In this document: positions 1,202-20,286 of the stretch, one piece after another
How the letters are laid out: each line of letters starts with the position of its first letter
How positions within the stretch are numbered: position 1 is the first letter of the stretch
DNA from: Acaryochloris marina MBIC11017
GTDB lineage: Bacteria; Cyanobacteriota; Cyanobacteriia; Thermosynechococcales; Thermosynechococcaceae
Length of the DNA: 32,000 nt
Direction of reading: 5' to 3'
Assembly: GCF_000018105.1 (NCBI RefSeq)
Contig: NC_009929.1
Span: 120,001 to 152,000, forward strand
Notes under the pieces: generated by a model
The model's input: the letters and a program-made list of their open reading frames with translations, nothing else
Database searches by the model: none
Told to the model about the DNA's origin: nothing
Program-made: the position numbers and the translations under genes

Positions 1202-3715
1202 ATGATTCACACAGAACCCCGCCTTTTCTCGGAAACCAGCCGTAAGCAAGCATTGATATTAGGTTTCGATGAGGTGGGCATTGCCGATATTCCCCTAGTT
1301 GGCGGCAAAAATGCCTCCCTAGGTGAAATGATTCAGCACCTGGTTCCTCTAGGCGTGAACGTCCCCAATGGCTTTGCCACTACCGCCTATGCCTATCGAT
1401 ATTTTATTCAGCAAGCAGGGATTGAAGCTCAACTCCGGCAGATTTTTACCGATTTAGATATCGAAGATGTCGATAATTTACGTCAGCGAGGACGACAGGC
1501 GCGCGCTCTGATTCTCCACACCCCCTTTCCCAAAGATCTGGAGCTAGCGATTTCCACCTCCTATTGCCAATTATGTGAACAATATGGCGTGGGCAATGTC
1601 GCTGAGAGTCGAGACTCCAAAACCCAAGAACGCCTGCAAGCCTACCATTACAACGTTGATGTCGCTGTCCGCTCTAGTGCTACAGCCGAAGACCTACCCG
1701 ATGCGAGCTTTGCTGGACAACAGGAAACCTACCTGAATGTTCATGGCGTTAAGCAGGTTTTAGAATCCTGCCATAAATGCTTTGCTTCCATCTTCACAGA
1801 CCGGGCGATTTCCTATCGCACCCTCAAAGGCTTTGATCATTTCCAGGTGGCCCTATCTGTGGGAGTGCAAAAGATGGTGCGCTCGGATCTAGCGTCTTCA
1901 GGGGTAATGTTCTCCATCGATACCGAAACTGGATTTAAGAATGCTGCATTAGTCACCTCTGCCTATGGTCTAGGTGAGAATGTGGTCCAAGGTGCCGTCA
2001 ACCCTGATGAATTTTTGGTTTTCAAACCTACCCTCCAGGAAGGCTTAAGCCCCATTCTGAGCAAGCGATTGGGCAGTAAAGAAATCAAAATGGTCTATGA
2101 CCTGGGGGGAAGTAAACTCACCAAAAATATTGCTGTCCCTCAATCTGACCGTGCTGAATTCTCGGCTAATGATGCGGAAATTCTCACCTTGGCACGTTGG
2201 GTTTGCATTATTGAAGATCACTATTCCCAGGTTCGGGGTATGGATACCCCCATGGATATTGAATGGGCCAAAGATGGCCAAACAGGGGAGTTATTTATTG
2301 TTCAGGCTCGTCCAGAAACGGTGCAGTCTCAAAAGGTTGCTAATCGCCTATCATCTTATCGGATGACAGTGGATACTCGACCCGCTGCCCTGATTGAAGG
2401 TCGAGCCGTAGGCGATCGCATTGGCCAAGGTACAGCCCGAGTGATTGCTTCTGTCCAAGGCATTTCCGAATTTCAGGCTGGAGAGGTCTTGGTGACCAAC
2501 CGCACCGATCCCGACTGGGAGCCAATTATGAAAAAGGCCAGTGCCATTGTTACAAACCAGGGGGGCAGGACCTGCCATGCAGCCATTATTGCCCGTGAAA
2601 TGGGTATTCCGGCTATTGTCGGTTGCGGTACGGCTACAGAGGTTCTCCAAACAGGACAGGACGTCACGATCTCCTGTGCTGAAGGTGAAGCGGGACAAGT
2701 TTATCCGGGGCTCCTTCCCTTTGTCGTTGAGGAAACAGCTTTGGATGAACTCCCTCCGACCCGGACGCAAATCTTGATGAATGTGGGCAATCCTGATGAA
2801 GCCTTTGGATTGGCTGCGATTCCCTGTGATGGGGTTGGATTAGCTCGGTTGGAGTTTATTATTGCGAACCAGATCAAGATCCATCCCTTAGCACTTTTGA
2901 GGTATGACGAGTTGACTGACGTCGATGCCAAACTGATCATCGCCCAATTGACGTCCCACTATGATCATAAACCTGACTACTTTGTGGATAAACTGGCCCA
3001 AGGGGTGGGAATGATTGCAGCCGCTTTTTATCCCAATCCAGTGATTGTTCGCATGTCCGACTTTAAGAGTAATGAATATGCCAACTTAATCGGCGGACGA
3101 CAGTTTGAACCCATGGAAGAAAACCCAATGATTGGTTGGCGGGGGGCTTCTCGCTATTACGACCCGAATTACCGTCAAGCCTATTCCTTAGAATGTCAGG
3201 CTCTGAAGCGTGTTCGTGATGAGATGGGACTGCGGAACGTGATTCCCATGATTCCCTTCTGCCGTACTCCTGAAGAAGGCCAGCAGGTCTTGAAGGAAAT
3301 GGCCCAGCATGGTCTGCAACGGGGTGAAAACGGTCTTCAGGTGTATGTGATGTGCGAAGTACCCAGCAATGTGGTGCTGGCAGAGGAATTTGCAGAGGTG
3401 TTTGATGGCTTCTCCATCGGCTCCAATGACTTAACCCAACTGACCCTAGGACTAGACCGAGACTCTGCCCTCGTCGCCCATATCTTTGATGAACGTAATG
3501 CCGCTGTGAAGAATCTGGTACGCCAGGTGATCTCCGTTGCCAAGGCAAAAGGCCGCAAAATTGGCATCTGTGGGCAGGCTCCCAGTGACTATCCTGAGTT
3601 TGCCCAGTTCTTGGTGGAGGAAGGGATTGATTCTATTAGCCTTAACCCAGATACGGTGCTTAAAACTCGGCTGGCCATTGCCCAAGTTGAAGCCCAAACG
3701 ACAACTACCCACTGA
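1202..3715 (+). CDS. ppsA: Phosphoenolpyruvate synthase (pyruvate, water dikinase)
   Basis: 837-aa ORF with an N-terminal ATP-grasp region (VGGKNASLGEM). The phospho-histidine swivel motif GGRTCHAAIIAREMGIPAIVG and a C-terminal PEP-utilising TIM barrel (GFSIGSNDLTQLTLG, ICGQAPSD) are both present. Confidence 0.93.
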   Translation: MIHTEPRLFSETSRKQALILGFDEVGIADIPLVGGKNASLGEMIQHLVPLGVNVPNGFATTAYAYRYFIQQAGIEAQLRQIFTDLDIEDVDNLRQRGRQARALILHTPFPKDLELAISTSYCQLCEQYGVGNVAESRDSKTQERLQAYHYNVDVAVRSSATAEDLPDASFAGQQETYLNVHGVKQVLESCHKCFASIFTDRAISYRTLKGFDHFQVALSVGVQKMVRSDLASSGVMFSIDTETGFKNAALVTSAYGLGENVVQGAVNPDEFLVFKPTLQEGLSPILSKRLGSKEIKMVYDLGGSKLTKNIAVPQSDRAEFSANDAEILTLARWVCIIEDHYSQVRGMDTPMDIEWAKDGQTGELFIVQARPETVQSQKVANRLSSYRMTVDTRPAALIEGRAVGDRIGQGTARVIASVQGISEFQAGEVLVTNRTDPDWEPIMKKASAIVTNQGGRTCHAAIIAREMGIPAIVGCGTATEVLQTGQDVTISCAEGEAGQVYPGLLPFVVEETALDELPPTRTQILMNVGNPDEAFGLAAIPCDGVGLARLEFIIANQIKIHPLALLRYDELTDVDAKLIIAQLTSHYDHKPDYFVDKLAQGVGMIAAAFYPNPVIVRMSDFKSNEYANLIGGRQFEPMEENPMIGWRGASRYYDPNYRQAYSLECQALKRVRDEMGLRNVIPMIPFCRTPEEGQQVLKEMAQHGLQRGENGLQVYVMCEVPSNVVLAEEFAEVFDGFSIGSNDLTQLTLGLDRDSALVAHIFDERNAAVKNLVRQVISVAKAKGRKIGICGQAPSDYPEFAQFLVEEGIDSISLNPDTVLKTRLAIAQVEAQTTTTH

Positions 3716-3872
3716 CCTTAAATGCGGGCTAGCACCAGACAGTCAGAAGGTGATGGCATGCGGTGTCATGGAGCGTTGATTCCTTCCGGATGCCCTCACA
3801 CTTTCCTCAAGATTCAGCACTAAAACTCGAATCAACGGTATCTACATCTTCTATGGGACACATTGCAGTTAG

Positions 3873-5712
<1,840 letters not shown>

Positions 5713-5726
5713 AGGCGGAGTTGCGG

Positions 5727-6041
5727 ATGGAAAATGCACGACTAGCGAAGGGCATCAACCAAGTGGACAAGCATGGTTTTCAAAAGCAAGTTAAGGATAA
5801 AGTCAACCGCAAACTAAAGGCTCGACACGAAAAAAAGAGCGTTTGGTTTGGTCTCGGTCTGTTCGGGTTAGTGGGGTGGTCAGTGGCTATTCCAACACTA
5901 TTGGGGATTGCCATCGGGAGTTGGCTCGACAACCATGTCCCCAGCCGCTATTCGTGGACCTTAACCATGCTGGTGGTGGGGGTGGGCTTAGGGTGTCTTA
6001 ACGCCTGGTATTGGATCAAAAAGGAAAGTCACCATGAGTGA
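5727..6041 (+). CDS. atpQ: AtpQ (AtpZ/AtpI-like small membrane protein of N-ATPase operons)
   Basis: A basic N-terminus is followed by two hydrophobic helices (VWFGLGLFGLVGWSVAIPTLLGIAIGSWL and WTLTMLVVGVGLGCLNAWYWI). ATG 5727 is preceded by GGCGGAG; the ORF-track start at 5721 is TTG. It sits third in the operon, as in atpDCQR. Confidence 0.7.
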   Translation: MENARLAKGINQVDKHGFQKQVKDKVNRKLKARHEKKSVWFGLGLFGLVGWSVAIPTLLGIAIGSWLDNHVPSRYSWTLTMLVVGVGLGCLNAWYWIKKESHHE

Positions 6042-7263
6042 AACGATCCTCCTTTATTTAGTTTTACTCGTAGGGACAACAATTGTTCTTGCCATCCTTT
6101 TTAAAGCAGGGGCCGAACGGCTAGGCATCCCTCCTTTAGTTGGATATTTATTGCTAGGTTTTGTTTTACAACTTCTGGATTTTCGAGGCTTTCTAGCTTC
6201 CGAAGTGGTGTTGGAGGTCTATAGTTTTTTAGCTGAATTAGGGATTATTTCTCTACTGTTCCGTGTGGGATTAGAATGCAATCTCACTGGATTATTGCGT
6301 CAGTTACCTCGAGCTTGCTTGCTCCTCGTCGGTGATGTGATCTGTAGTGGTTCACTAGGTTTTATCACGGCCTATTTCCTTTTGAATTTATCTCTGGTTG
6401 CCAGCCTATTTATTGGCATTGCCTTGGTCGCAACCAGTGTTGGGATTTCAATTAGCGTTTGGCAAGATTCCCAGGCCCTTAATTCCATAAATGGAGAGTT
6501 GTTACTAGATATTGCAGAAATGGATGATATTGCGGCTATTATCCTGATGTCTTTATTGTTCTCCCTTGCGCCTTCCTGGCAGCATGGAACTGAAATCAAG
6601 TTTCTGCCGCTTTTAGAAACCATTATTGGGCCTTTTTGCTTAAAGGTGATAATTTTTAGCACCTTCTGCTTGATCTTTTTTCGCTATATTGAGCAGCCCT
6701 TAACTCAATTTTTTGAGCGCATAGAACCGGCCCCCGATCCGATGCTGATGGTTGCCGGAACAGGCTTTGTTATTGCTGCTATAGCAGGGCTTTTAGGTTT
6801 CTCAGTTGCGGTTGGGGCCTTCTTTGCCGGACTGGCATTTAGCCGAGATCCTCACGCGGTTAGAATCGATGCATCTTTTGGCACACTCTACGAATTTTTT
6901 GTGCCGTTTTTCTTTATCAATATTGGTCTACAAATTCAATTTACAGGCCTAGCAACCACAGTTGGTATCAGCCTAGTCCTGCTCAGTGCTGCCCTGATTG
7001 GCAAACTGATGGGAGTCGGAGGATTACTACTCCTGACTCAAGGTGACCTTTCGAGCGCAACACTACTCGGAATCAGTATGATTCCTCGAGCCGAAATTAC
7101 GATGGTGATCCTGCAACGAGGACGTGACTTGGGCACTTGGGCCGTCTCTGTCCAGATATTTGCGGGTATGACCTTGGTTGCGATCGCAACCTGTATTATC
7201 GCGCCGATGCTGTTATATCCGTTACTTAAGCAATGGCCCCAACTCCAGGAGGTGGAAGCATGA
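6034..7263 (+). CDS. Cation/proton antiporter, CPA2 (NapA/Kef-type membrane domain only, no RCK/KTN domain)
   Basis: 409 aa and almost entirely hydrophobic. Motifs present: LFRVGLE, ATS (aa 133-135), paired aspartates DD (aa 164-165) and IPRAEITMVI. Its ATG overlaps the atpQ stop (ATGAGTGA), and its TGA overlaps the atpR ATG (ATGA). Confidence 0.85.
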   Translation: MSETILLYLVLLVGTTIVLAILFKAGAERLGIPPLVGYLLLGFVLQLLDFRGFLASEVVLEVYSFLAELGIISLLFRVGLECNLTGLLRQLPRACLLLVGDVICSGSLGFITAYFLLNLSLVASLFIGIALVATSVGISISVWQDSQALNSINGELLLDIAEMDDIAAIILMSLLFSLAPSWQHGTEIKFLPLLETIIGPFCLKVIIFSTFCLIFFRYIEQPLTQFFERIEPAPDPMLMVAGTGFVIAAIAGLLGFSVAVGAFFAGLAFSRDPHAVRIDASFGTLYEFFVPFFFINIGLQIQFTGLATTVGISLVLLSAALIGKLMGVGGLLLLTQGDLSSATLLGISMIPRAEITMVILQRGRDLGTWAVSVQIFAGMTLVAIATCIIAPMLLYPLLKQWPQLQEVEA

Positions 7264-7595
7264 ATAGTCATTCCCCTGCCCTATTCACCTCCTTAATTTT
7301 GGGGAGTAGCTTAGGACTCCTTTACTTCGGTGGACTATGGATCACGATTCTCCGATTTAACCGCACCACTCAACCCATCCTGTTGATGTGGAGTAGTTTT
7401 CTACTCCGTCTGGGCACGGTTTTAGGGGTGTTTCACCTTATCCTTCAGAACGGTATGAGCGATCATCTGCTGGCCCCTCTACTGCTGACATTTCTGGGAT
7501 TTCTGGGGGCTCGAAATCTCTTAATTTCCAGCATTATTCCTCTGCCTAAAAAGATCAAGAAGGGCAGAAAAGACGTTGTGAATTATGACTTATAA
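7260..7595 (+). CDS. atpR: AtpR (N-ATPase-specific small membrane subunit)
   Basis: 111 aa with three hydrophobic segments and an AtpR-like GLLYFGGLWITILR motif. ATG 7260 is preceded by AGGAGG (7247-7252). The ORF-track start at 7233 would fall inside the antiporter gene. Confidence 0.7.
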   Translation: MNSHSPALFTSLILGSSLGLLYFGGLWITILRFNRTTQPILLMWSSFLLRLGTVLGVFHLILQNGMSDHLLAPLLLTFLGFLGARNLLISSIIPLPKKIKKGRKDVVNYDL

Positions 7596-7736
7596 GCTCT
7601 AAATCAAAGAATTTTCTCAATACTCTGTATCGCAAAGAAGTTTGGCCAAAAGACTTAAACATAGCTCTTTCAACACAGCATCAGAATTTATCGTTGTTAT
7701 CACTTTTAAAGTTTCTTGGTATGGAGCCCAAATGTA

Positions 7737-8441
7737 ATGCATCTAACACCCGATCAAACTATTTTTTGGCAATGGGGGTTGTTCTCTCTCAATGCGACGC
7801 TGATCTTCACTTGGCTTGTCATGGGGGTGTTGGTGGTTGGCTCATGGTTCGTGACCCGACACCTCTCTGCCTCGACTCAGATCTCCCGGGGACAAAACCT
7901 GTTAGAGGTCATTGTGTTGGGCATTAGAGATCAGATTCAAGAAATCATTGACCAACCCGCAGACCCGTACTTACCGTTTATCGGCACCTTATTTATCTTT
8001 ATTGCCCTATCAAATCTGTTGAGTGTTATCCCCGGTTACCAACCACCGACGGGGTCCTTATCCACCACAACGGCTCTGGCACTTTGTGTCTTTTTCGCAG
8101 TCCCCCTCTATGGCGTTCAGAAGAAGGGTGTGCGGGGTTACTTACAGCAGTACTTGCAGCCTAACCCCATCATGCTGCCATTCAATATCATTGGGGATTT
8201 CTCCAGAATTGTGGCCCTAGCTGTCCGCCTGTTTGGCAATGTCATGAGTGGAACGATGATCGTCGGCATCCTACTGTCGGTAGCTCCCTTGTTTTTCCCA
8301 GTCATGATGCAGGTCTTGGGGCTCTTAACGGGCGTGATTCAAGCCTATATTTTCGCCATTTTAGCCATGGTTTTCATTGCAGCGGCGAGTCAAGTGGATC
8401 AGCACAACTATCAAACAGACAGTGAGGTCTCCCATGGATAA
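7737..8441 (+). CDS. atpB: N-type F-ATPase a subunit
   Basis: Polytopic membrane protein with the essential stator arginine in its usual context (LAVRLFGNVMSG). ATG 7737 is preceded by GGAG (7723-7726); TTG 7716 is an alternative start. Confidence 0.85.
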   Translation: MHLTPDQTIFWQWGLFSLNATLIFTWLVMGVLVVGSWFVTRHLSASTQISRGQNLLEVIVLGIRDQIQEIIDQPADPYLPFIGTLFIFIALSNLLSVIPGYQPPTGSLSTTTALALCVFFAVPLYGVQKKGVRGYLQQYLQPNPIMLPFNIIGDFSRIVALAVRLFGNVMSGTMIVGILLSVAPLFFPVMMQVLGLLTGVIQAYIFAILAMVFIAAASQVDQHNYQTDSEVSHG

Positions 8442-8721
8442 TATTGCCCTTGTGGGCATGGCTTCGATTGTGATCTCTGGACTCACCATTGCCATTGGCT
8501 CCATCGGTCCAGCCCTAGGGGAAGGTCGTGCCTTATCCCAGGCACTAAGCGCCCTGGCGCAACAACCTGATGAAGCCAATACCATCACCAGAGTGCTGTT
8601 TGTGGGGATGGCATTGGTCGAATCAACGGCCATTTACTGTTTTGTGATTACATTGATTCTGATTTTTGCCAATCCATTTTGGACCTATGTGGTGGAGCAG
8701 GCCAGCACCAATGGAGGATAA
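8434..8721 (+). CDS. atpE: N-type F-ATPase c subunit (rotor ring)
   Basis: 95-aa helical hairpin with loop QQPD, helix 1 GPALGEG and helix 2 MALVESTAIY. ATG 8434 overlaps the atpB stop by 8 nt and is preceded by GTGAGG. Confidence 0.9.
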   Translation: MDNIALVGMASIVISGLTIAIGSIGPALGEGRALSQALSALAQQPDEANTITRVLFVGMALVESTAIYCFVITLILIFANPFWTYVVEQASTNGG

Positions 8722-8723
8722 CC

Positions 8724-9515
8724 ATGTTGATTGATCCACTTACTGTGGTGGCCCAAATCATCAATTTCCTGATTCTAGTGGCCTTACTCAGGCGGTTTCT
8801 CTACACCCCGATCACTCAAGTGATGAAAAAGCGAGAACGGCTGATTGCTCAACAGTTACAGGATGCTGCTCATCAGCAAGAAGTCGCTCAGCAAGAAGCT
8901 GAACGGTGGCGTCAGATGCAGCAATCTTTAGAACATCGCCAAGCCTCGTTTTTGACCCAAGCGCAAGACGCAGCAGACGAACATCGACATCAGTTGTTGC
9001 AGCAAATTCGGGACGAAGTGGATAGTACCCAAGCTCAATGGAGAGAGGCCGTCAAGCGTGAGCAGCACGTGTTTCTAAGTGCCCTACAGCAGCGAGCAGG
9101 ACAGCAGCTAGCTGCAACCCTTCGATGTATTCTTCAAGACTTAGCAAGTGCCAATTTAGAGCAACAAATCCTGGAGACTTTTATTACTCGCCTTAGCCAT
9201 TTACCTTTTTCAGAGCAGGGGGTTCTGGAAACATCCTTATCCAATGCAAGGGGAGAGGAACTCGTTATCTCCAGTACATTTCCAATGCCGGAGGATCGCA
9301 AAGCCCAAATTCTTGCGGTCCTCCATCAGTATGCTCCTGCGATGGAATCGAGTGTTTACCAGTTTGTAACCATTCCAGACTTGATTTGTGGGATTGAACT
9401 CAAGATTCCTGGATATAAGCTGGCTTGGACGATCGAGCAATATCTTGAGCAGTTAGAGGTGAAGTTAAATCAGGTATGGGATGGCATGGAAAAATCATGG
9501 GTTGAGCAGGGGTAG
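8724..9515 (+). CDS. atpF: N-type F-ATPase b subunit (long, 263 aa)
   Basis: A single N-terminal TM helix (LTVVAQIINFLILVALL) is followed by a long charged Q/E/R-rich helix and then a C-terminal globular-looking part. ATG 8724 lies 2 nt after the atpE stop and is preceded by GGAGGA. Confidence 0.75.
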   Translation: MLIDPLTVVAQIINFLILVALLRRFLYTPITQVMKKRERLIAQQLQDAAHQQEVAQQEAERWRQMQQSLEHRQASFLTQAQDAADEHRHQLLQQIRDEVDSTQAQWREAVKREQHVFLSALQQRAGQQLAATLRCILQDLASANLEQQILETFITRLSHLPFSEQGVLETSLSNARGEELVISSTFPMPEDRKAQILAVLHQYAPAMESSVYQFVTIPDLICGIELKIPGYKLAWTIEQYLEQLEVKLNQVWDGMEKSWVEQG

Positions 9516-9518
9516 ACC

Positions 9519-11060
9519 ATGGAGGCTCCCAAACTCGATATTTTGAAACCCGTACTCCAACACATCTTTGCGGCCTTTGATCAGGTGGAAGGTGAGTATC
9601 CATTCGAGTTGCAGAGTCAGGAAATTGGCATTGTGACTTCTTTAGGTCATGGTATTGCCCGAGCGACTGGCCTGTTGCAGGTGCAATCGGAGGAGTTAGT
9701 CAAATTTCCCGGCGATCGGATGGGGCTAGCCTTCAACTTAGATCCAGATGAGGTGGGTTTGATTTTGTTGGATGATGGACATTCCCTGAAGGCAGGGTGT
9801 GAGGTCCAGCGCACAGGCCGGGTTTTGGATGTCCCCGTAGGAGAGGGTTTACTGGGTCGAGTCGTGGATGCAACCGGTCGTCCGTTGGATCAACGAGGAT
9901 TAGTGACTGCGCAAGAACGACGCCCCGTTGAACGGGAGGCTCCTGCCATCATGGACCGGGCTCCTGTAACCGTGCCCCTTCAGACAGGCATTAAGGCCAT
10001 TGATGCTCTTATTCCTATTGGTCGGGGACAGCGGGAACTGATTGTTGGTGATCGGCAAACGGGAAAAACTGCGATTGCCGTCGATACTATCCTCAACCAA
10101 AAAGATCAGGATGTGATTTGTGTGTATTGCGCCATTGGTCAGCGCAGTTCTGCCGTGGCCAAGCTAATTGCTGAGCTTCGCAATCGTGGGGCGATGGACT
10201 ACTGCATTGTCGTGGTAGCGGAGGGGGAAGCCTCACCCGGCCTGCAATATATCACCCCCTATGCTGCGACCACGATGGCAGAGTACTTTATGGAACAAGG
10301 GCAAGATGTGTTGATTGTTTATGACGATCTGATTCAACATGCCCGAGCCTATCGTGAGCTATCGCTTCTATTGCGCCGCCCGCCGGGACGAGAAGCCTTT
10401 CCAGGAGATATTTTTTATATTCATGCTCGGCTGCTGGAGCGGGCGACGTGCCTGCGGCCTGAGTTAGGGGGAGGCTCTCTAACGGCGTTGCCCATTGTCG
10501 AGACGGAAGCCCAAAATCTATCGGCCTATATCCCCACGAACTTAGTCTCAATTACAGATGGACAAATCTATCTCACCCCTGATTTGTTTCAAAAGGGAAT
10601 ATTCCCTGCCGTTGATGTGGGCAAATCGGTTTCCCGAGTCGGAGGCAAAGCCCAGCTTCCTGCTTACCGAGATGTTGCGGGCGATTTACGACTGTCCTAC
10701 ACGCAGTTTGAAGAATTGGAATCTTTTGCTCGGTTTGGAACCCGTTTAGAAGAATCCACTCGGCAATCTTTAGAGCGAGGTCGTCGGGTGCGTGAAGTGC
10801 TGCAACAACCTCAATTTCAGCCTTTACCCGTTGCAGAGCAAATTGCTGTAATGCTAGCGGTGACTCAGGGACAGTTTGATCTCGTGCCCATTGAGCAAGT
10901 GTCCCAAGCCCAACAGCTTATAGGAGAAGCGATACGACGGGAGCTACCGAATATTTGCGATCGCATCCAGAATGCAGGGCAGTTAAGTGAAACGGATCGG
11001 GAGACGTTGCTGAACTGGATCGCCAACCACATATTAAAGGACTCAGACAATGAGTTGTAA
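9519..11060 (+). CDS. atpA: N-type F-ATPase alpha subunit
   Basis: 513 aa with Walker [16 protein letters not shown] and [12 protein letters not shown]. The ATG lies 3 nt after the atpF stop. Confidence 0.93.
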
Positions 11061-11154
11061 TGACTAAATCTAAAGGCCTGCTCTATGCCCTGAAGCCCAT
11101 CCATTGATGATGTCTGCAATAACCAGTCAACATTCATACCCGGCCATTAACATC

Positions 11155-12033
11155 ATGCAAACCCTAGAAACCCTTAAGCGAAAAATTGCCAGCACTCAGG
11201 AGTTGCAGACCGTTGCTAAAACGATGAAAGCTCTAGCCGCCGCCAATATCCGTCAGTATGAACAGGCTGCCAATGCCCTTCAGCACTACCGCCAGACCTT
11301 GGCGATGGCGATACAAATTCTCCGAATAAATTATCCGGATACGTTAACTCACCTGAGACCCCGTGCGCACCCTCGTTTGGGAATAGTGATTTTCGGTTCG
11401 GATCAGGGGATGTGTGGTCGCTTCAATGAGCAGTTGTCAGAGATGGTGATTCAGCACCTAGAGCAGCACTCTTCTCAGGGTGGGCAACCCCTTCTGTTAG
11501 GGATGGGAGCCCGAATTTGCGATAGCATCATTGATCAAGGTTACGCCATTGAGCGATATCTTTCGGTTCCAGCCTCAGTTGACGGCATCACATCTAAGGC
11601 CCAAACGATCGTTGTCCAGCTTGAACAATGGCGTAACCAATGTCAGGTAGACCAAATTTGGGTGTTCCATAATCAACCCATCCGTGGTCATACCAGTACC
11701 CCCCACCGACAACAGCTCTTTCCCCTTGAATCTGACCGTGATCGCTCCTCCTCCTGGTCGACTCGCTGTCGTCCAATGGTCTTTCTGAGTCGAGAGAGAT
11801 TGTTCTCAGCCATATTTCGGCAGCATTTTTTTGTTGCCCTATACCAAGCCTGCGCTGAGTCCCTAGCCAGTGAAAATGCCAGTCGCTTGACCTCAATGCA
11901 GTTAGCGCAAACCAATATTGCTGAACATTTGATGGAGCTACAAGCTGCTTTTCAACAGCAACGCCAAACAAAAATCACGGAAGAGTTGCTGGATATCGTG
12001 TCAGGCTTTGAGGCCCTTAACCAATCCCACTAG
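11155..12033 (+). CDS. atpG: N-type F-ATPase gamma subunit
   Basis: The N-terminal helix MQTLETLKRKIASTQELQTVAKTMKALAAA and the C-terminal helix SENASRLTSMQ...ITEELLDIVSGFEAL are typical of gamma. The upstream in-frame starts TTG 11104 and ATG 11107 cannot be excluded. Confidence 0.82.
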   Translation: MQTLETLKRKIASTQELQTVAKTMKALAAANIRQYEQAANALQHYRQTLAMAIQILRINYPDTLTHLRPRAHPRLGIVIFGSDQGMCGRFNEQLSEMVIQHLEQHSSQGGQPLLLGMGARICDSIIDQGYAIERYLSVPASVDGITSKAQTIVVQLEQWRNQCQVDQIWVFHNQPIRGHTSTPHRQQLFPLESDRDRSSSWSTRCRPMVFLSRERLFSAIFRQHFFVALYQACAESLASENASRLTSMQLAQTNIAEHLMELQAAFQQQRQTKITEELLDIVSGFEALNQSH

Positions 12034-12599
12034 TGGCTCAAGGCAGGGGCCGCGAGCGGTTCACAAAGGATATCTGCACAAGTTGCCACCGTTTGCCACT
12101 CTTGCACCACTTGAGTGGGGACTTCAACTTTAATGAACTTCATCCCTTTTGTCGGAATCAACAGGTAAAGAGCAGCGTCTAACTTAGGCACAACTGGTTG
12201 GAGATTATACTGGGCAACATTGGGGCCAGGGAGGAGTTCAGTATACAAAGACTCTGGGAGATTCTTCACTTTTACAGTTTTTCCTTGAGACGTGACCAGG
12301 GTAAGAGGCAGAGAATGATCGATATCTACAAAGCCAGGGCAGCCAGCTAGCATCAGGTCAATCTTAGGGGGGCTAGCAATGCCCACATGCTTGGATGCGA
12401 CGACTAACCAATCATTCCCTTGTTGATCGAGTAGATGTTGTCGAGATTGATAGAGCATCTGACCTTGTGCTTCTCTTGTCATGCTCACGTCTGCGATCGC
12501 AGATGAACTGATCCCATTGCCCATATTGGTCAAGAGCAGCAGCACTAAGGTACTGATCATTAACAACAACAATAGATTTCTACGAATCCAAACTCTCAT
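12030..12599 (-). CDS. Hypothetical exported or membrane-anchored protein
   Basis: The N-terminus MRVWIRRNLLLLLMISTLVLLLL has a signal/anchor character, and the remainder is soluble and beta-rich. I recognised no catalytic motif. The ORF-track start at 12614 is TTG; ATG 12599 is preferred. Confidence 0.55.
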   Translation of the reverse strand: MRVWIRRNLLLLLMISTLVLLLLTNMGNGISSSAIADVSMTREAQGQMLYQSRQHLLDQQGNDWLVVASKHVGIASPPKIDLMLAGCPGFVDIDHSLPLTLVTSQGKTVKVKNLPESLYTELLPGPNVAQYNLQPVVPKLDAALYLLIPTKGMKFIKVEVPTQVVQEWQTVATCADILCEPLAAPALSH

Positions 12600-12658
12600 T
12601 TGTCTATTCCTCAATTTATATGGATGTAGAGGGTTATGAATGAGGTTGATAGTGGACC

Positions 12659-12874
12659 TTAGAAAATCTCACAAGAGTATTGCCAGCAACGCTCTAACAA
12701 CATACGCTGCTGTTCAATTTCACATTTCCTGACATAGCAACGTTCCAACAGCTCTCTGTCATAAGTGTGGGAAAACATCATGGGATTTAGGATGGATTTA
12801 GGCTTAAATAGAGGCTGATTCAGGTAGAGCCAAACCATCATCACCAACCTCGTGAAGGAATGCTTTGGTTTCAT
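12659..12874 (-). CDS. Small hypothetical protein (71 aa, four Cys in the C-terminal 30 aa)
   Basis: The ATG is preceded on the minus strand by GGAGGT with a 9-nt spacer (GGAGGTCGTAAGCCGATG). It lies 59 nt downstream of the DUF4278-like gene on the same strand. No recognisable family. Confidence 0.4.
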   Translation of the reverse strand: MKPKHSFTRLVMMVWLYLNQPLFKPKSILNPMMFSHTYDRELLERCYVRKCEIEQQRMLLERCWQYSCEIF

Positions 12875-13640: not shown

Positions 13641-16019
13641 GTGAGAATCCTAGTTGTGGAAGATGATGAGTTAGTTGCTGAAGCGCTGCAAACTTTACTC
13701 GTCGATTTGAATTATGCCGTTGAGCTGGCAACAGATGGCCAGACCGCGGCAGAATTGGTCGAAGCATTCGAATACGATCTCATCCTTTCAGATGTAATGT
13801 TGCCTAGACTGGATGGGGTTGGTCTTTGCCAACAGTTGCGATCCCAAGGCTATCAAATTCCGATCTTGCTACTTACGGGCAAGGATAGCAGCCATGATCG
13901 CGCGATTGGACTTGACGCTGGGGCAGATGACTACGTCGTTAAACCGTTTGATCCAGAAGAATTAGCGGCTCGGGTAAGGGCCTTACTTCGCAGAGGGGAA
14001 GCCATCAAACCCCCAATCTTAAAATGGGAAAACTTACAGCTAGACCCCAGAGCATGTGAGGTCAAATATCAAGATGTTCTCCTCAAGCTCACTCCCAAAG
14101 AATATGCCCTCGTAGAGTTAATGATGCGGAATACCCGCCGTGTATTTAGTTGCGGAATGATTTTAGAACATATATGGACATATGAGGATACACCTGGCGA
14201 AGAAGCAGTCAGAACTCATATCAAGGGCCTCCGCCAAAAATTAAAAGCATCGGGAGCACCCACGGACTTGATTGAAACCGTTTATGGCATTGGGTATCGC
14301 CTGAAACCACTAGCAGAACTAAAAAAAAATCAAGGGACATCTGTTCAAACACCAGAAGTCAAAATTAAGCAGCAAACCATGAGTGCGATTGCTGATATTT
14401 GGATTAAGTTTCAGCCCCGTATCCAGGAACAGATCAATCAATTAGATAAGGCTGTAGTAGCAGTGACTGAGGGTTGCTTGAATAACGAATTAAGGCAATC
14501 GGCTCAACAAGAAGCCCATACCTTAGCCGGTGGATTAGGGACCTTTGGTTTATCGAAAGGGTCCCAGTTAGCGCGTGAGATTGAACATCTATTGCGATCT
14601 CATTCCTCCCTCGACGCCAAGCAATCCCTGCAGTTTCAACAGGATGTCGAGGCGCTGAGGCGGGAAATAAATTATGCTAGCCAACCTGCCACTCAAGTGA
14701 CCTCAGACCGTCAAGATGAATTGGGGCAATGGGTTGTTCTAGTGATAGATGCTGATACCCCTTCCCGAGATGCTCTAGCGACGGAGGCTCGTCAGCATCA
14801 GATTCGATATCTAACGGCAGAGAGCATTGACCTGGCACGAGACCTCATTCAGGAACAGTCCCCGCATCTCATCCTCTTTGATCCTGCAGGCCAGTCTCCA
14901 ATCCAAAGCCTAACCTTTTTAGAGGCTCTACTGTATCTTCCACTACCCATTCCAGTCTTGATCTGGACAGCTGATGAGGAACGGTATCAAGAGATGGCTA
15001 AAGCCTACTCTAGCGGCCAACGACCAATCTCAAAATCTTTACCCCTTCAACAAGTGTGGGATCGGGTTGAACACACCCTCCAAAGTAAGGGGGGCAAAGA
15101 AGCCCGGATCATGATTGTGGATGATGACCCACAAATCTTGGAAACCGTAGCGGCCCTATGCAAACCCTGGGGGCTTGAGGTCATTGGACTTGACGAGCCG
15201 ACTCAGTTTTGGGAAACGCTGACCAATTCTCCACCGGATCTGCTGTTACTCGATGTAGAGATGCCCGAAATTGGCGGGATAGATCTGTGCAGGGTTGTTC
15301 GCAATGATATTCAGTGGGAGCAGTTGCCCATCATTTTTCTAACTGCCCACACGGAGGCTGATGTGGTCAACCAAGTTTATGCTTCAGGGGCAGATGATTT
15401 CATCAGCAAGCCCATTGTCGGACCAGAATTGGTGGTTCGTATTCTCAACCGTTTAGAACGGACTCGATTACAGCGCCGTCTTTCCACCATTGATCCTTTG
15501 GCCCGAGTGCTCAGCCGCCACGAATCGACCCATGCCCTGGAATTGCTGTTGAGTGAGGTGGCGCATCAACCTCGCAGCATGTGTCTTGTTATTCTGGAAA
15601 TAGAGCGTCTTCAGCAGATTAATGATTGCTTTGGTTACGCGGTAGGCGACAGTATCCTGAGACAGTTTGCTCAAGCGTTGTTAGGGTTGGCATCTACTGA
15701 AGATGTGATTGCCCGTAGAGGTGGTAACCAATTCTTAGTGGGGTTGTTAGGAGCCACCAAAGCTGAGGGAGGTCAAAGAGTTCAAGACTTCTTGAATGTT
15801 GTCCATAAGACCCCCTATTCAATACCTGATGGCACCAACATTCAGATTACCTGTAGTGCAAGTGTGGTTCATTGTCCTGAGGACAGTCAAGATTTTCAAG
15901 ATCTGTGCATTTTGGCAGAAGAGACGTTGACTGAAGCCAGAGCATTAGGGTGGGGGCAAGTTCGCATAGCCAATCAGTCCCTATCCCTCCCAGCCAAACT
16001 GCATGCCGAGAAAGGCTAG
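13641..16019 (+). CDS. Multidomain response regulator: REC - OmpR-type winged helix - Hpt - REC-like - REC - degenerate GGDEF
   Basis: GTG start preceded by TAGGAGGA. Domains as read:
- REC1: D51 in LILSDVMLP, K101.
- wHTH: LTPKEYALVELM...YGIGYRLK.
- Hpt-like: H293 in QEAHTLAGGLGTFG.
- REC2: aa ~365-470.
- REC3: DDD 494-496, D538, T568, K590.
- GGDEF fold with GGNQF (aa 694-698) and STED in place of the RxxD I-site. Confidence 0.88.
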   Translation: MRILVVEDDELVAEALQTLLVDLNYAVELATDGQTAAELVEAFEYDLILSDVMLPRLDGVGLCQQLRSQGYQIPILLLTGKDSSHDRAIGLDAGADDYVVKPFDPEELAARVRALLRRGEAIKPPILKWENLQLDPRACEVKYQDVLLKLTPKEYALVELMMRNTRRVFSCGMILEHIWTYEDTPGEEAVRTHIKGLRQKLKASGAPTDLIETVYGIGYRLKPLAELKKNQGTSVQTPEVKIKQQTMSAIADIWIKFQPRIQEQINQLDKAVVAVTEGCLNNELRQSAQQEAHTLAGGLGTFGLSKGSQLAREIEHLLRSHSSLDAKQSLQFQQDVEALRREINYASQPATQVTSDRQDELGQWVVLVIDADTPSRDALATEARQHQIRYLTAESIDLARDLIQEQSPHLILFDPAGQSPIQSLTFLEALLYLPLPIPVLIWTADEERYQEMAKAYSSGQRPISKSLPLQQVWDRVEHTLQSKGGKEARIMIVDDDPQILETVAALCKPWGLEVIGLDEPTQFWETLTNSPPDLLLLDVEMPEIGGIDLCRVVRNDIQWEQLPIIFLTAHTEADVVNQVYASGADDFISKPIVGPELVVRILNRLERTRLQRRLSTIDPLARVLSRHESTHALELLLSEVAHQPRSMCLVILEIERLQQINDCFGYAVGDSILRQFAQALLGLASTEDVIARRGGNQFLVGLLGATKAEGGQRVQDFLNVVHKTPYSIPDGTNIQITCSASVVHCPEDSQDFQDLCILAEETLTEARALGWGQVRIANQSLSLPAKLHAEKG

Positions 16020-17181: not shown

Positions 17182-17700
17182 TCAAATGGAGTCTTCTGAA
17201 ACAACCGTTTCTCCTTGAATCACCAAGACAGAACAAGGGGCATGGTGGACGATATGGTTGCTGACACTCCCAAGAAAAAGTTCCTTGAGTCCCGTGCGAC
17301 CATGGCGTCCCACGACAATCAGATCAGCGTGCCAGTCTTTAGCCCGTTTACAAATCTGAGGCCCTGGATTACCTAATTCAGTCTCAAAGGTTGTCTTTAT
17401 ACCTTGATGCTCTGCTTTTAGGCAAAATTCTTGCAACCATAGTTTGGATTCCGCAATTTGTGCGTCCCAGGCTTGCCTTGCCAACTCGTAATCCACAGCA
17501 GATGGAGAAAGGTAACCTGATTCTAAAGGAGTCCCTACCGGTGAGATCGTTGAATTACCCAAAGGATTAATTTCTGCCTCTACACTATGAAACAGCTTTA
17601 CCTCAGCTGCATGTAATTTTGCTTCTACCAATGCCTGTTCATAAACTGCAGGTTGAAGGAAGGAAGTATCTAGTGCAACCAAAATGCGATGATATCTCAT
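17182..17700 (-). CDS. Universal stress protein (single UspA domain)
   Basis: ILVALDTS...DLIVVGRHGRTGLKELFLGSVSNHIVHHAPCSVLVI is a USP ATP-binding-type motif. ATG 17700 is preceded on the minus strand by GGAGGAATCCTG. I consider the longer ORF-track start at 17817 unlikely. Confidence 0.8.
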   Translation of the reverse strand: MRYHRILVALDTSFLQPAVYEQALVEAKLHAAEVKLFHSVEAEINPLGNSTISPVGTPLESGYLSPSAVDYELARQAWDAQIAESKLWLQEFCLKAEHQGIKTTFETELGNPGPQICKRAKDWHADLIVVGRHGRTGLKELFLGSVSNHIVHHAPCSVLVIQGETVVSEDSI

Positions 17701-17730
17701 CAGGATTCCTCCATAGAAATAACAACCGTC

Positions 17731-17757
17731 TTGACAGTTCCCATCCCCCCCTATATC
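17731..17757 (+). promoter_or_regulatory. Sigma70-like promoter candidate with a C7 tract in the spacer
   Basis: TTGACA (17731-17736) is followed by a 15-nt spacer that ends in CCCCCCC (17745-17751), then TATATC (17752-17757). It points toward the ferredoxin-nitroreductase gene. This is a sequence pattern only. Confidence 0.25.
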
Positions 17758-18078
17758 TCCATGGTAGAGCTTTATTTTCACAAGCAGCGATAAAAGATTT
17801 TGCCGCAGAGCTGGCAAGTAATTGGAAATATGGCTTTATTCTTGTCTCCAGCGGAGGGGTTTCGTCAACGCTCATCGATTAGGCGAGGGGGGACGGGGAT
17901 AGACAATTGGCACCCTCACAAATTGCTCATTTAGTATGCCTAGGCTCAAAGATAGAGATGGCAATATCAGTCAAAGTTAGTCCTATAGCAGGGGGGGACT
18001 TCACCTGTGATGTGAGGACATCCTGGTGTCAGAAGCGAAACATCAGCCAGCATGTGCAAAGGCTAAGGAGTCAGCATT

Positions 18079-18951
18079 ATGGCGACTATCCAGATTGATG
18101 CCGAACGCTGTCAGAAATGTGGAAAATGTGTGCAGATTTGTCCAACGATCTTTGCACAACATACCAAAGGGGCAATTCCTCACTTGCTAGACACTACTCG
18201 ATGTATCGAATGTGGGCATTGCGTCGCCATTTGTCCCAGCGAGGCGATTTCTCATTCGAGTTTTCCGTCTGGCACCATCGCTCCAATCCAGCCAGAACAA
18301 CTGCCCGATACGGCACAATTCATGGAACTATTGCGATCGCGCCGTTCCATTCGTGAATTCAGCAAGAGGCAAGTTGATCGGGCACTGATTGAACAAATTA
18401 TTGAGGCAGCCTGCTTTGCGCCCAGTTCCCACAATGTCCAAAGTACAGAGTACATCGTCGTCCAAGACCCCGCCATGCGCCAGCAAATTGTTGAACTGAC
18501 CATCGCTCAATACCGACAGTGGCGCAAACTACTCGGCAATCCAATCGCACGAACCCTGACACGGCTGGTGAGAGGCTCAACCGGGCAAGCCACGTTAGAC
18601 GAACTACGCGAAGCCTTTACAAACCTAATCAACCAGTACGGTCAGGGAAGCGACCCCATTCTGCGAGAAGCTCCTACCCTGCTGATCTTCCATGGCGATC
18701 GTCACATCGGTTTCGCTGGGGTTAACGCCAACCTTGCCTTGCAAAATGCCAGTTTAGTGTGTGAAACCTTGAAGTTGGGTGCTTTTTATACTGGCTATGT
18801 CGTTGCTGGCAGTAATTTTAATCCTCGGCTGGCCAGACTACTGAAACTCCCACCAAATCACAAAATCTATGCTGGTTTAGCAATCGGTCATCCTAGATTT
18901 CACTATAAAAATTGGATTGAGCGCAAACCTACTCAGATTCAATGGTTTTAA
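18079..18951 (+). CDS. 2x[4Fe-4S] ferredoxin domain fused to a nitroreductase-family flavoprotein
   Basis: Two CxxCxxCxxxCP motifs (CQKCGKCVQICP and CIECGHCVAICP) are followed by nitroreductase-type LLRSRRSIREF...APSSHNVQ. The ATG is preceded by AAGGAG. Confidence 0.85.
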   Translation: MATIQIDAERCQKCGKCVQICPTIFAQHTKGAIPHLLDTTRCIECGHCVAICPSEAISHSSFPSGTIAPIQPEQLPDTAQFMELLRSRRSIREFSKRQVDRALIEQIIEAACFAPSSHNVQSTEYIVVQDPAMRQQIVELTIAQYRQWRKLLGNPIARTLTRLVRGSTGQATLDELREAFTNLINQYGQGSDPILREAPTLLIFHGDRHIGFAGVNANLALQNASLVCETLKLGAFYTGYVVAGSNFNPRLARLLKLPPNHKIYAGLAIGHPRFHYKNWIERKPTQIQWF

Positions 18952-19212: not shown

Positions 19213-20286
19213 ATGTTGAAAAAAATTCTGGTGGCTCTAGATCATTCAGCCTTTAGCCAGAAAACCTTTATGCAATCTCTGGTTTTAGCCAAGGCAACCC
19301 ATGCAAAGCTGATGCTGTTTCATGTCATCTCATCGACTGAGGAAGGATATCCTCCTTATCCCTTGATGCCAGGTGTGTTGGAGGAGTTTGACCTGTCATA
19401 TGCTGGAGTCGCAAACTCTTATCTCAATGACTTAGATGTCTTCAAAGCCAGCAGTTTTGAGTTACTCAGATCTCGAGCCAATCAGGCTAAAGAAAAGGGT
19501 CTGACCGTTTTCTACCAACAATCCATGGGAGATCCAGGTCGAGAGATTTGCGAAATCTCTCGACAATGGAAAGCGGATACGATCATCATCGGACGCCGCA
19601 GCCGAAATCTTCTTAGCAAAGTTCTATTGGGCAGTGTTAGCAACTACGTCACACACCATGCTCCTTGTTCAGTGTTGATTGTCCACCACCAGGATGTGCC
19701 GGAGTTCATCCCCAAACAATCTATAAATACTTTAGAGGCGAATAAACTGTCTTTCGAAGAATGGCGCGGAAAGTTGTCTTACCGCAGTATCTTAGTGGCC
19801 TTGGATGGGGGTGACATTAACCAGCCTATCGTTAATAGAGCAATAAATCTTGCCAAGAGAATGTCCACAGCTCGGTTGATGTTGCTGCATGTCTTGCCCC
19901 ATGATGTGGCAAAAGTTCCCATTCCTAGTCCCCCTCCAACCGCAATTGCTCAGCAACGGCTGGATAACTATCCTAGTTTGCGTGATGACATCCTCTACAG
20001 CCAACAACGACAATGGAATGCCTATGATAGTGATTGCTTACCCCAATTGCGATCCTATACTGCGATCGCAAGGGAAGCAGGTATTCCAACTGAATTTATT
20101 CAACAACCTGGATCTCCCGGTGAAGTCATTTGTGAATTTGCTAAGAACAGATCATCAGACTTAATTCTAGTGGGTAATCGAGGTCGTTCAGGACTTAGCG
20201 AAATGCTTCTTGGAAGTGTGGGGAAATATGTTGCGAACCATGCGTCCTGTTCCGTGATGGTCGTTCGTCCTCAGCAACCGGCATGA
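19213..20286 (+). CDS. Tandem universal stress protein (two UspA domains)
   Basis: Two repeats of the pattern ILVALD...(I/L)(I/L)(I/V)G(R/N)R(S/G)R...LLGSV(S/G)xYVxxHAxCSV(L/M)(I/V)V. The ATG is preceded by AGGAGG. Confidence 0.85.
   Translation: MLKKILVALDHSAFSQKTFMQSLVLAKATHAKLMLFHVISSTEEGYPPYPLMPGVLEEFDLSYAGVANSYLNDLDVFKASSFELLRSRANQAKEKGLTVFYQQSMGDPGREICEISRQWKADTIIIGRRSRNLLSKVLLGSVSNYVTHHAPCSVLIVHHQDVPEFIPKQSINTLEANKLSFEEWRGKLSYRSILVALDGGDINQPIVNRAINLAKRMSTARLMLLHVLPHDVAKVPIPSPPPTAIAQQRLDNYPSLRDDILYSQQRQWNAYDSDCLPQLRSYTAIAREAGIPTEFIQQPGSPGEVICEFAKNRSSDLILVGNRGRSGLSEMLLGSVGKYVANHASCSVMVVRPQQPA

Follow-up and report, generated by a model that had tools for sequence, protein, structure and literature searches.

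N-ATPases are encoded by operons with the canonical gene order atpDCQRBEFAG (Dibrova, Galperin & Mulkidjanian 2010, PMC2881411), and a long b subunit has been described for them (PMC4154653). Their physiological role is largely conjecture, with Na+ or H+ export, salt tolerance and phagosome survival among the proposals. The N-ATPase operon of the cyanobacterium Aphanothece halophytica is described as having nine genes. The A. halophytica enzyme is a Na+-dependent F1F0-ATPase (Soontharapirakkul et al. 2011) encoded by an N-type operon that has been implicated in salt tolerance by way of Na+ export (as cited in PMC12342949). The results presented here concern an N-ATPase operon on contig NC_009929.1 of Acaryochloris marina MBIC11017, in a stretch of 32,000 nucleotides (positions 120,001 to 152,000; hereafter the window, in which positions are counted from the first letter). 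In this operon a gene designated X, encoding a predicted NapA-type cation/proton antiporter, is embedded between atpQ and atpR.

A rotary Na+-ATPase and a secondary cation transporter are co-expressed from the V-type Na+-ATPase operon (ntp) of Enterococcus hirae, whose last gene, ntpJ, encodes the KtrII K+ transporter component; the pair serves Na+ and K+ homeostasis at high pH and high salt. The operon of the window shares this pairing, for which ntp is a functional precedent. However, the E. hirae enzyme is V-type rather than N/F-type, its transporter belongs to the Trk/Ktr type rather than to CPA2, and the transporter gene is terminal rather than embedded.

That the Acaryochloris operon holds an extra gene is already known. 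A gene inserted in A. marina and, for Cyanothece, a "two-gene insertion" are mentioned by Dibrova et al. 2010 (PMC2881411). An earlier reading of this DNA from its letters and open reading frames (the sequence-only reading) took the canonical order to have nothing between atpQ and atpR, which is not quite right given the insertion on record. No paper that connects an N-ATPase operon with an embedded antiporter came up in full-text literature searches, which did not cover the 2010 supplement of Dibrova et al., and later papers on N-ATPase operons give only atpDCQRBEFAG. What appears to be new is the NapA-type identity of the inserted gene, its wide occurrence, across at least seven phylum-level groups, as an operon variant inherited together with the atp genes, the conserved 8-nt junction between atpQ and X, and the presence of X deletion scars in operons that look canonical.

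Organization of the operon

[quoted passage not shown] The structural subunits match the "alternate F1F0 ATPase" models TIGR03305, 03166, 03306, 03322, 03321, 03324 and 03323, and no ORF in 3879-12033 matches a delta/OSCP subunit family. The locus shares with canonical N-ATPase operons the nine atp genes in the same order with atpD and atpC ahead of the membrane-sector genes, the "alternate F1F0" matches, atpQ and atpR, the lack of delta, the long b subunit and a c subunit with two glutamates and the ESTxxY motif. Like them, it is plasmid-borne in the close relatives of the window. It differs in having a tenth gene, 1230 nt long, which splits atpQ from atpR and has junctions overlapping both. 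Since all other adjacencies are kept, the window holds a variant of the N-ATPase operon, not a different system. No second atp operon lies within the 32-kb window.

X as a NapA-type antiporter

The PF00999 domain spans residues 18-399 of the 409-residue X protein, and no further domain is found. A profile built from X and 14 relatives had as its best solved relative, over the full length, the Na+/H+ antiporter NapA of Thermus thermophilus (TtNapA; 4bwz, 5bz2, 5bz3; E ~5e-34), an electrogenic member of the NapA-I clade of CPA2; the same profile matched KefC far more weakly (E 1e-9). An AlphaFold2 model of X (pLDDT 76.7, pTM 0.79) had inward-facing NapA (5bz2) as its top Foldseek match, with TM-scores of 0.77/0.81. 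Structure 4bwz was also among the top matches, and KefC, NHA2 and CPA1 structures ranked below NapA. X and TtNapA are only about 26% identical, yet they are of the same length class and fold, neither has a cytoplasmic regulatory domain, and both have an Arg/Glu pair in unwound transmembrane helix (TM) 11 (PRAE in one, PRGE in the other). We know of no case in which TtNapA is encoded inside an ATPase operon.

The catalytic residues support the same assignment. An eight-position CPA motif has been defined, in which positions 1-4 lie in unwound TM4, positions 6-7 form the ND/DD pair and position 8 is an Arg or Lys on TM10; position 5 is Glu in CPA1 only (Masrati et al. 2018, PMC6181914). By these rules, the NhaA, NapA and GerN clades, which are electrogenic, are marked by Asp at position 6 combined with Lys at position 8, and positions 2-3 of K+-selective CPA2 proteins are Ser-Ala, usually followed by Thr at position 4 (PMC6181914). 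The motif of X (ATSV, I160, DD, K324) is identical to that of TtNapA, so X is predicted to be electrogenic and Na+(Li+)-selective, not Kef-like. Residues T134, S135, D164, D165, K324 and R352 are invariant in 43/43 in-operon and 33/33 solo copies of X from the survey described below. The positions that the sequence-only reading gave for LFRVGLE (75-81), ATS (133-135) and DD (164-165) are correct, as are its statement that X lacks an RCK/KTN domain and its assignment of X to the electrogenic NapA-type class, the last of these at the level of prediction from sequence, fold and CPA motif.

The best NCBIfam match of X is the CPA2 model TIGR00932, at 119.8 bits against a cutoff of 238.3; with this score below cutoff, CPA2 membership rests on the fold, the motif and the profile match to solved structures. 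The KefC model (NF002924) gives 41.6 bits where its cutoff is 752, and the KefB model 37.3 bits where its cutoff is 804. E. coli KefC/KefB (8bxg, 8by2) share with X a CPA2 membrane domain of the NhaA/NapA fold (Foldseek TMq 0.73-0.75). However, X lacks the KTN/RCK domain and its DD/ATSV motif is not of Kef type; a Kef-type K+ efflux identity was rejected on these grounds together with the scores. Two further acidic residues, D159 (6508-6510) and E162 (6517-6519), precede the DD pair in TM5 and are invariant in a 15-sequence alignment of the X family; TtNapA has Gly and Val at these positions (LDVAEMDD in X, LGAAVIDD in TtNapA).

It has to be asked whether X might instead exchange mainly K+ for H+, or act as a Na+/H+-K+ exchanger of GerN/Kef type, balancing charge or K+ while the ATPase exports Na+. 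Close homologues are named "Na(+)/H(+)-K(+) antiporter GerN" in one source and "Kef-type K+ transport system" in others, and D159 and E162 are acidic residues which TtNapA lacks. These names are automatic annotations, however, and TM4 of X reads A-T-S-V as in Na+-selective TtNapA, not the Ser-Ala-Thr of K+-selective CPA2 proteins. Together with the missing KTN/RCK domain and the far weaker match to KefC than to NapA, this makes a mainly K+-linked exchanger improbable. The identity of X as a NapA-type antiporter gene, and its membership of the operon, can be stated with high confidence.

Distribution of the arrangement

One genome per GTDB species was scanned with an alignment of X; the best 80 of 195 relatives were taken, giving 81 loci with that of the window (loci are cited by L numbers). 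Window atp proteins were mapped onto the ORFs of each locus, and the X proteins were placed on a tree. In 43 of the 81 loci X directly follows atpQ within an N-ATPase operon. Five have X beside an N-ATPase operon in another arrangement, namely oriented divergently from atpD (L023), upstream of atpD by a few kb (L052, L073) or convergent with atpG (L046, L078). The remaining 33 have no atp gene within the available flanks and are termed solo.

In-operon copies are found in the cyanobacteria Acaryochloris, Leptolyngbyaceae, Pleurocapsales, Xenococcus PCC 7305, Coleofasciculus, Rivularia, Mastigocoleus and Phormidium. Outside the cyanobacteria they occur in Cytophagia, Balneolales, Desulfobacteraceae, Desulfatiglandaceae and Syntrophales (named as Desulfobacterota), Brocadiaceae, KSB1 and Calditrichota. 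A locus of Candidatus Abyssubacteria (L162) shows the order PF09527/PF00999/PF12966 with an 8-nt overlap in independent gene calls with precomputed Pfam matches. The atpQ-X-atpR arrangement is therefore a recurring operon variant, present in Cyanobacteriota and at least six other phylum-level groups.

Acaryochloris sp. CCMEE 5410 has the closest homologue of X, with 98% identity. At the DNA level, the operon as a whole shares 88.7% identity with plasmids of two relatives, A. marina S15 and Acaryochloris sp. "Moss Beach". On these plasmids RefSeq shows the same ten genes with the same overlaps and names X "cation:proton antiporter"; the PEP synthase gene upstream and the DUF3122, DUF4278 and response-regulator genes downstream are also common to them and the window.

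Junctions of X with atpQ and atpR

The start codon of X overlaps the atpQ stop codon, and its own stop codon overlaps the atpR start (Table 1). Of 42 in-operon loci, drawn from several phyla, 32 have an overlap between atpQ and X of exactly 8 nt, with starts chosen under alignment guidance, and the octamer follows the pattern RTGNNTGA/TAA. In most in-operon loci the K-(K/R)-E-S codons conserved in atpQ give rise, at the same place, to an equivalent Shine-Dalgarno-like element, AAGGAGAG. At the other end, 25 of 37 loci have the atpR start between -8 and +6 nt from the X stop. The X junctions of the window (-8 and -4 nt) resemble those of atpD/atpC (-11) and atpB/atpE (-8) in the same operon. 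The atpQ-atpR junction of canonical operons is variable, from -80 to +292 nt, although the choice of start codons makes this range noisy. A lone overlap of 4 or 8 nt is common in operons and would be weak proof of coupling, but its conservation across loci is beyond chance. Co-translation of X with the operon is strongly suggested by these junctions.

Co-inheritance of X with the operon

Pairwise distances among 29 in-operon loci were compared by Mantel tests with 2000 permutations (p ~5e-4). Distances of X correlated with those of AtpD (r 0.91), AtpR (r 0.85), AtpC (r 0.79), AtpQ (r 0.70) and AtpB (r 0.70); the reference correlation of AtpD with AtpB was r 0.75. The chief clusters seen in the X tree reappear in the tree of AtpD+AtpC. 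The ratio of nonsynonymous to synonymous substitutions (dN/dS) between X of the window and X of the A. marina S15 plasmid is 0.10, and the atp genes range from 0.00 to 0.20. X thus falls inside the range of the atp genes and is under purifying selection. In GC content, third-position GC content (GC3) and codon usage X is no outlier; its GC3 of 0.43 is at the low end compared with 0.46-0.59 for its neighbours. As evidence for a recent foreign acquisition of X the composition was rejected, since it is not exceptional and membrane protein genes are T-rich anyway. Judged by the Mantel correlations, the dN/dS of 0.10, the invariant catalytic residues and the unremarkable composition, X is a functional gene that travels with the operon, including between phyla.

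The gene order, the coordinates of X and the positions of both overlaps and of AGGAGG had been given correctly by the sequence-only reading, which argued that X is not a passenger insertion. That argument is borne out by the 43 in-operon loci among 81, the conserved 8-nt junction, the Mantel correlations of 0.70-0.91 and the low dN/dS. A synteny survey, which it had called for and which was started here from relatives of X, finds X after atpQ in those 43 loci from multiple phyla. A strain-specific foreign insertion, which it had named as an outcome speaking against its view, is not what is seen: X is widely conserved and its composition is ordinary.

The coupling ion

The c subunit of the window reads GPALGE ... 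VESTAIY, with a glutamate in both helices and the ESTxxY motif. A helix-1 glutamate together with ESTxxY is taken as diagnostic for Na+ binding (PMC2881411, PMC12342949). The c subunits of 39 loci were aligned with that of the window, covering X operons having atpE and three of the operons with X nearby. The helix-2 ESTxxY is present in all of them, and the helix-1 glutamate in all except L065, which has Gln. Almost all canonical operons of the metagenomic sample described below have ESTxxY too. As a discriminator between operons with and without X the motif was therefore discarded; it fits Na+ and is not specific to X. The only N-type ring studied biochemically, that of Burkholderia pseudomallei, is H+-specific and has 17 c subunits (c17, PMC5376962). 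The Na+-type character of the c subunit is a prediction from its motif.

Because the Na+ ligand set occurs in operons with and without X, the choice of ion sits in the c ring. The suggestion in the sequence-only reading that the antiporter sets the effective coupling ion is not supported, since the ring has the Na+ ligand motif regardless of X.

A Na+-type ring beside a Na+/H+ antiporter could also be read as a sodium cycle for ATP synthesis, in which X would spend proton-motive force on building a Na+ gradient, and this gradient would drive the N-ATPase as an ATP synthase. For this speak the reversibility of F-type enzymes, the Na+ motif of the c subunit, and the general expectation that a large c ring would permit ATP synthesis at low ion-motive force. 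The solved N-type ring is indeed large; its authors proposed an ion pump (PMC5376962). Against such a cycle, N-ATPases always accompany a normal F-type ATP synthase and have been interpreted as exporters (PMC2881411, PMC5376962). Going from proton-motive force through a Na+ gradient to ATP would add a step with no evident gain, and the saline lineages, the universal stress protein (Usp) genes and the extra P-type cation pump found at some loci point to export under stress. A role in ATP synthesis thus seems very unlikely.

A proposed role for the pump and the exchanger

The reading preferred here is that X and a Na+-type N-ATPase probably form a co-expressed Na+/pH cassette of which X is not an obligate subunit. 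The N-ATPase would expel Na+ electrogenically at the expense of ATP, building a membrane potential, inside negative. This potential would drive the antiporter, with more than one H+ entering per Na+ leaving, so that more cytoplasmic Na+ is expelled. The antiporter would at the same time relieve the electrical back-pressure on the pump and counter alkalinisation of the cytoplasm. The sum would be an ATP-driven, roughly electroneutral Na+-out/H+-in device for homeostasis under salt and alkaline pH which needs no pre-existing proton-motive force. Such a device would work when the proton-motive force is low or its pH component reversed, for instance under high pH or high salt, in darkness or when oxygen is missing. 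The pair would move as one laterally transferred cassette, and one transfer could be enough to establish it in a new host. This physiological model, taken by itself, is evenly poised between holding and failing. The two-component ion circuit put forward in the sequence-only reading stands as the most plausible function, one that we infer. Three observations fit a cassette for cation stress: a P-type cation pump in the same slot in two genomes, Usp genes near the operon in the window and in L162, and linkage of X to the operon in three other arrangements.

Several lines of evidence weigh against a cooperating cassette. Since Na+ would be exported by both proteins, it is the energetic argument that has to carry the benefit of the pairing; the direction, stoichiometry and substrate of X are themselves predictions from motifs. 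In Pleurocapsales and Coleofasciculus the junction between X and atpR is broken by 65-4600 nt, including insertion sequence (IS) elements and defence genes. The arrangement is also in the minority. In a sample independent of X, metagenome contigs were scanned with an AtpQ alignment headed by AtpQ of the insertion-free operon L073, and of 74 informative N-ATPase operons 63 (~85%) had the canonical atpQ-atpR order. Nine had an intact X after atpQ, one (L148) a large remnant of X, and one (L157) no atpR.

Four of the operons in which atpR follows atpQ carry scars of X. The scar of L148 (1726-1904) keeps the GTGAGTGA junction and a stub, VSEYELNYP, that equals the N-terminus of X in its relatives L143 and L150. 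It also retains the last ~45 codons of X (E 6e-18 to X positions 358-402) and the ATGA junction with atpR. That of L130 (995-1067) has a 43-nt tail ~95% identical to that of L148, with a score of 69 against a maximum of 30 in 500 shuffles. By hidden Markov model (HMM), the scar of L103 (4795-4875) encodes ...MLKRWPQ..., matching the C-terminus of X, and that of L135 (4783-4898) holds a fragment matching X positions 203-236. A scan of the other 60-290-nt atpQ-atpR spacers by HMM and nucleotide comparison gave no signal of X remnants, leaving these four as the convincing cases. As read from the scars, X has been deleted at least four times and the ATPase does not need it, a further point against the cassette. 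It follows that some operons with adjacent atpQ and atpR are secondarily X-less. Operons with and without X are interleaved in the AtpD+AtpC neighbour-joining tree; as this tree has no support values, gains and losses were not counted from it and the deletion scars were relied on instead. Repeated loss indicates that X is an accessory partner, not an obligate subunit.

The solo copies count in the same direction. When 43 in-operon and 33 solo copies were compared, no residue was present in at least 85% of one group and at most 35% of the other. Neighbours of solo X show synteny at the level of lineages and none conserved across clades. With the same catalytic residues in unrelated chromosomal contexts, X has no visible specialisation for the ATPase.

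If these points are given their full weight, X could be a tolerated passenger, a housekeeping antiporter gene inserted once at a permissive site and hitch-hiking with a mobile operon without any cooperation. Most N-ATPase operons lack X, its deletion has recurred, its solo copies are the same at conserved residues, and the site between X and atpR has also gathered IS605 OrfB-like, PIN, GmrSD/HEPN and P-type ATPase genes. A neutral passenger, however, would not be expected to show, over several phyla, catalytic residues that never vary and a dN/dS of 0.10, nor to preserve the coupling junction at exactly 8 nt in 32 of 42 loci. Neither would it be expected beside the operon in three other arrangements in five genomes. 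A passenger is considered unlikely for these reasons.

The position of X exactly between the two N-ATPase-specific membrane proteins, with overlapping junctions predicted to couple it to both, raises the opposite question of whether X belongs physically to the membrane sector. X might dock at AtpQ, AtpR or the a/c-ring interface in a pump-exchanger supercomplex, or need AtpQ and AtpR for its assembly. The X-AtpR Mantel correlation (r 0.85) would agree with this, but shared descent explains that correlation equally well. Deletion scars leave operons otherwise intact, X is found alone or in other positions in many genomes (outside the atpQ-atpR slot in five), the 120 best homologues include no AtpQ-X or X-AtpR fusion, and no residue separates in-operon from solo copies. 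An obligate physical association of X with AtpQ and AtpR is disfavoured, and a supercomplex is improbable on this evidence. It is likewise improbable that X docks via AtpQ and/or AtpR for a local handover of Na+ and H+, with AtpQ and AtpR serving as adaptors for such partners. Were docking true, the atpQ-X-atpR arrangement would be old and part of the "canonical" atpDCQRBEFAG operons would be secondarily X-less. A cassette of two co-expressed but separable transporters remains the preferred reading.

Two genomes hold both an in-operon X and a closely related solo copy: L013 and L021 in Waterburya agarophytonicola, and L016 and L018 in Cyanobacteriota HOU_bin.0041. The solo copies L021 and L018 fall within the Pleurocapsales clade of in-operon copies, a position suggesting that they were duplicated out of the operon.

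Features of the operon and its surroundings

The coordinates of the operon are collected in Table 1.

Table 1. Genes, junction elements and predicted catalytic residues of the window's N-ATPase operon
Feature	Position	Strand	Basis or remark
atpD, N-ATPase F1 beta	3879..5327	+	TIGR03305 (alt_F1F0_F1_bet) 786 bits, cutoff 752
atpC, epsilon	5317..5712	+	TIGR03166, NF004871; 11-nt overlap with atpD
atpQ, gene1/AtpI-like N-ATPase accessory membrane protein	5727..6041	+	PF09527 E 2e-15; TIGR02230 137 bits, cutoff 46.7; ATG 5727, alternative TTG 5721
Shine-Dalgarno-like AAGGAAAG from atpQ C-terminal K-(K/R)-E-S codons	6021..6028	+	GGA 8 nt 5' of X start; putative ribosome-binding site
ATGAGTGA, X start codon overlapping atpQ stop, 8 nt	6034..6041	+	sequence
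X, 409-aa NapA-type CPA2 cation/proton antiporter (predicted), membrane domain only	6034..7263	+	PF00999 E 1.8e-44
A133-T134-S135-V136, unwound TM4, CPA motif positions 1-4	6430..6441	+	aligned with TtNapA A125-T126-S127-V128
D164-D165, TM5 DD ion/proton-binding pair, CPA motif positions 6-7	6523..6528	+	aligned with TtNapA D156-D157
K324, TM10 lysine, CPA motif position 8, partner of D164	7003..7005	+	aligned with TtNapA K305
AGGAGG, Shine-Dalgarno for atpR, within X 3' end	7247..7252	+	sequence; GGAGG-like elements at same spot in other loci
ATGA, atpR start overlapping X stop, 4 nt	7260..7263	+	sequence
atpR, N-ATPase-specific small membrane protein	7260..7595	+	PF12966 E 5.9e-22; TIGR03165 52.7 bits, slightly below cutoff 55.5
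atpB, subunit a	7737..8441	+	TIGR03306 346 bits; ATG 7737, alternative TTG 7716
atpE, subunit c, full Na+-ligand pattern	8434..8721	+	TIGR03322 147 bits; 8-nt overlap with atpB
atpF, long subunit b (263-278 aa)	8724..9515	+	TIGR03321, NF011044
atpA, F1 alpha	9519..11060	+	TIGR03324 821 bits
atpG, gamma	11155..12033	+	TIGR03323 276 bits, slightly below cutoff 282; PF00231 E 3.7e-58; ATG 11155, alternative TTG 11104

The interval between atpR and atpB (7596-7736) is the sole sizeable noncoding gap in the membrane-sector half of the operon, measuring 120 nt to the TTG at 7716 and 141 to the ATG at 7737. It could be the site of an internal regulatory element; a consensus scan of the gap gave no promoter or terminator. 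Over 3600-12700 the same kind of scan gave 5 sites resembling promoters, with 9.7 expected by chance from shuffled sequence, and 11 resembling terminators, with 8.9 expected. Such sites are not in excess over shuffled sequence, and the scan was set aside as uninformative.

Directly upstream of atpD, on the same strand, lies a full-length gene resembling PEP synthase (PPDK_N, PEP-utilizers, PEP-utilizers_C; 1202-3715, +). A PEP-synthase-like gene holds this position in ~13 of 47 loci with enough upstream sequence, from unrelated phyla. It is found in L050 (2169-4586), L059 (4247-6766), L065 (4384-6786), L077 (2-2545), L073 (6647-9061), L086 (216-2627), L111 (233-2641), L115 (2-2392), L144 (204-2621), L135 (3-1685) and L162 (1-862), and it overlaps the atpD start in L050 and L086. 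Such a gene also lies directly upstream of solo X in L070. Downstream of the operon, the window encodes a 792-aa protein with two receiver domains and Trans_reg_C, Hpt and GGDEF domains (13641-16019), Usp genes (17182-17817, minus strand, and 19213-20286), a ferredoxin-nitroreductase fusion (18079-18951) and a Complex1_51K/NADH_4Fe-4S protein resembling the HoxF/NuoF-type diaphorase subunit (20868-22523). A Usp gene also adjoins the operon in L162.

Genes inserted between X and atpR in some cyanobacteria lie at 13100-14652 in L016, 2527-4204 in L035 and 10601-11056 in L007. The inserts comprise GmrSD_N and RiboL-PSP HEPN genes, an IS605 OrfB/Cas12f-like TNB gene with a weak DUF6163 match beside it, and a PIN-domain gene. 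Two Pleurocapsales have a type-II P-type cation ATPase gene (Cation_ATPase_N, E1-E2_ATPase, Cation_ATPase_C) immediately following X and ahead of atpR (L013 3386-6181, L016 10224-12980). Their operons thus encode a rotary pump, an exchanger and a P-type pump, and this insert may be the "two-gene insertion" of Cyanothece (Dibrova et al. 2010), for which it is a candidate. A second insertion-prone spot lies between atpA and atpG, where Candidatus Abyssubacteria L162 has a baeRF-family (bacterial eRF1-like) gene at 9906-11078 and the cyanobacterial operons L030, L039 and L041 have gaps of 1.7-3.6 kb. The cyanobacterial operon L015 has a gap of ~2 kb between atpF and atpA.

Significance

For annotation, the results indicate that the order atpDCQRBEFAG is not invariant and that the atpQ-atpR spacers of seemingly canonical operons can hold the remnants of a lost gene. 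Related operons in which X is present, deleted with a scar left behind, or relocated amount to a natural experiment on what the antiporter adds. The recurrence of the variant suggests that pump and exchanger work together in salt and pH homeostasis. With the role of N-ATPases still largely conjectural, the conserved pairing offers a concrete hypothesis, in which the N-ATPase would act within an ATP-driven Na+-out/H+-in module that moves between phyla as a cassette.

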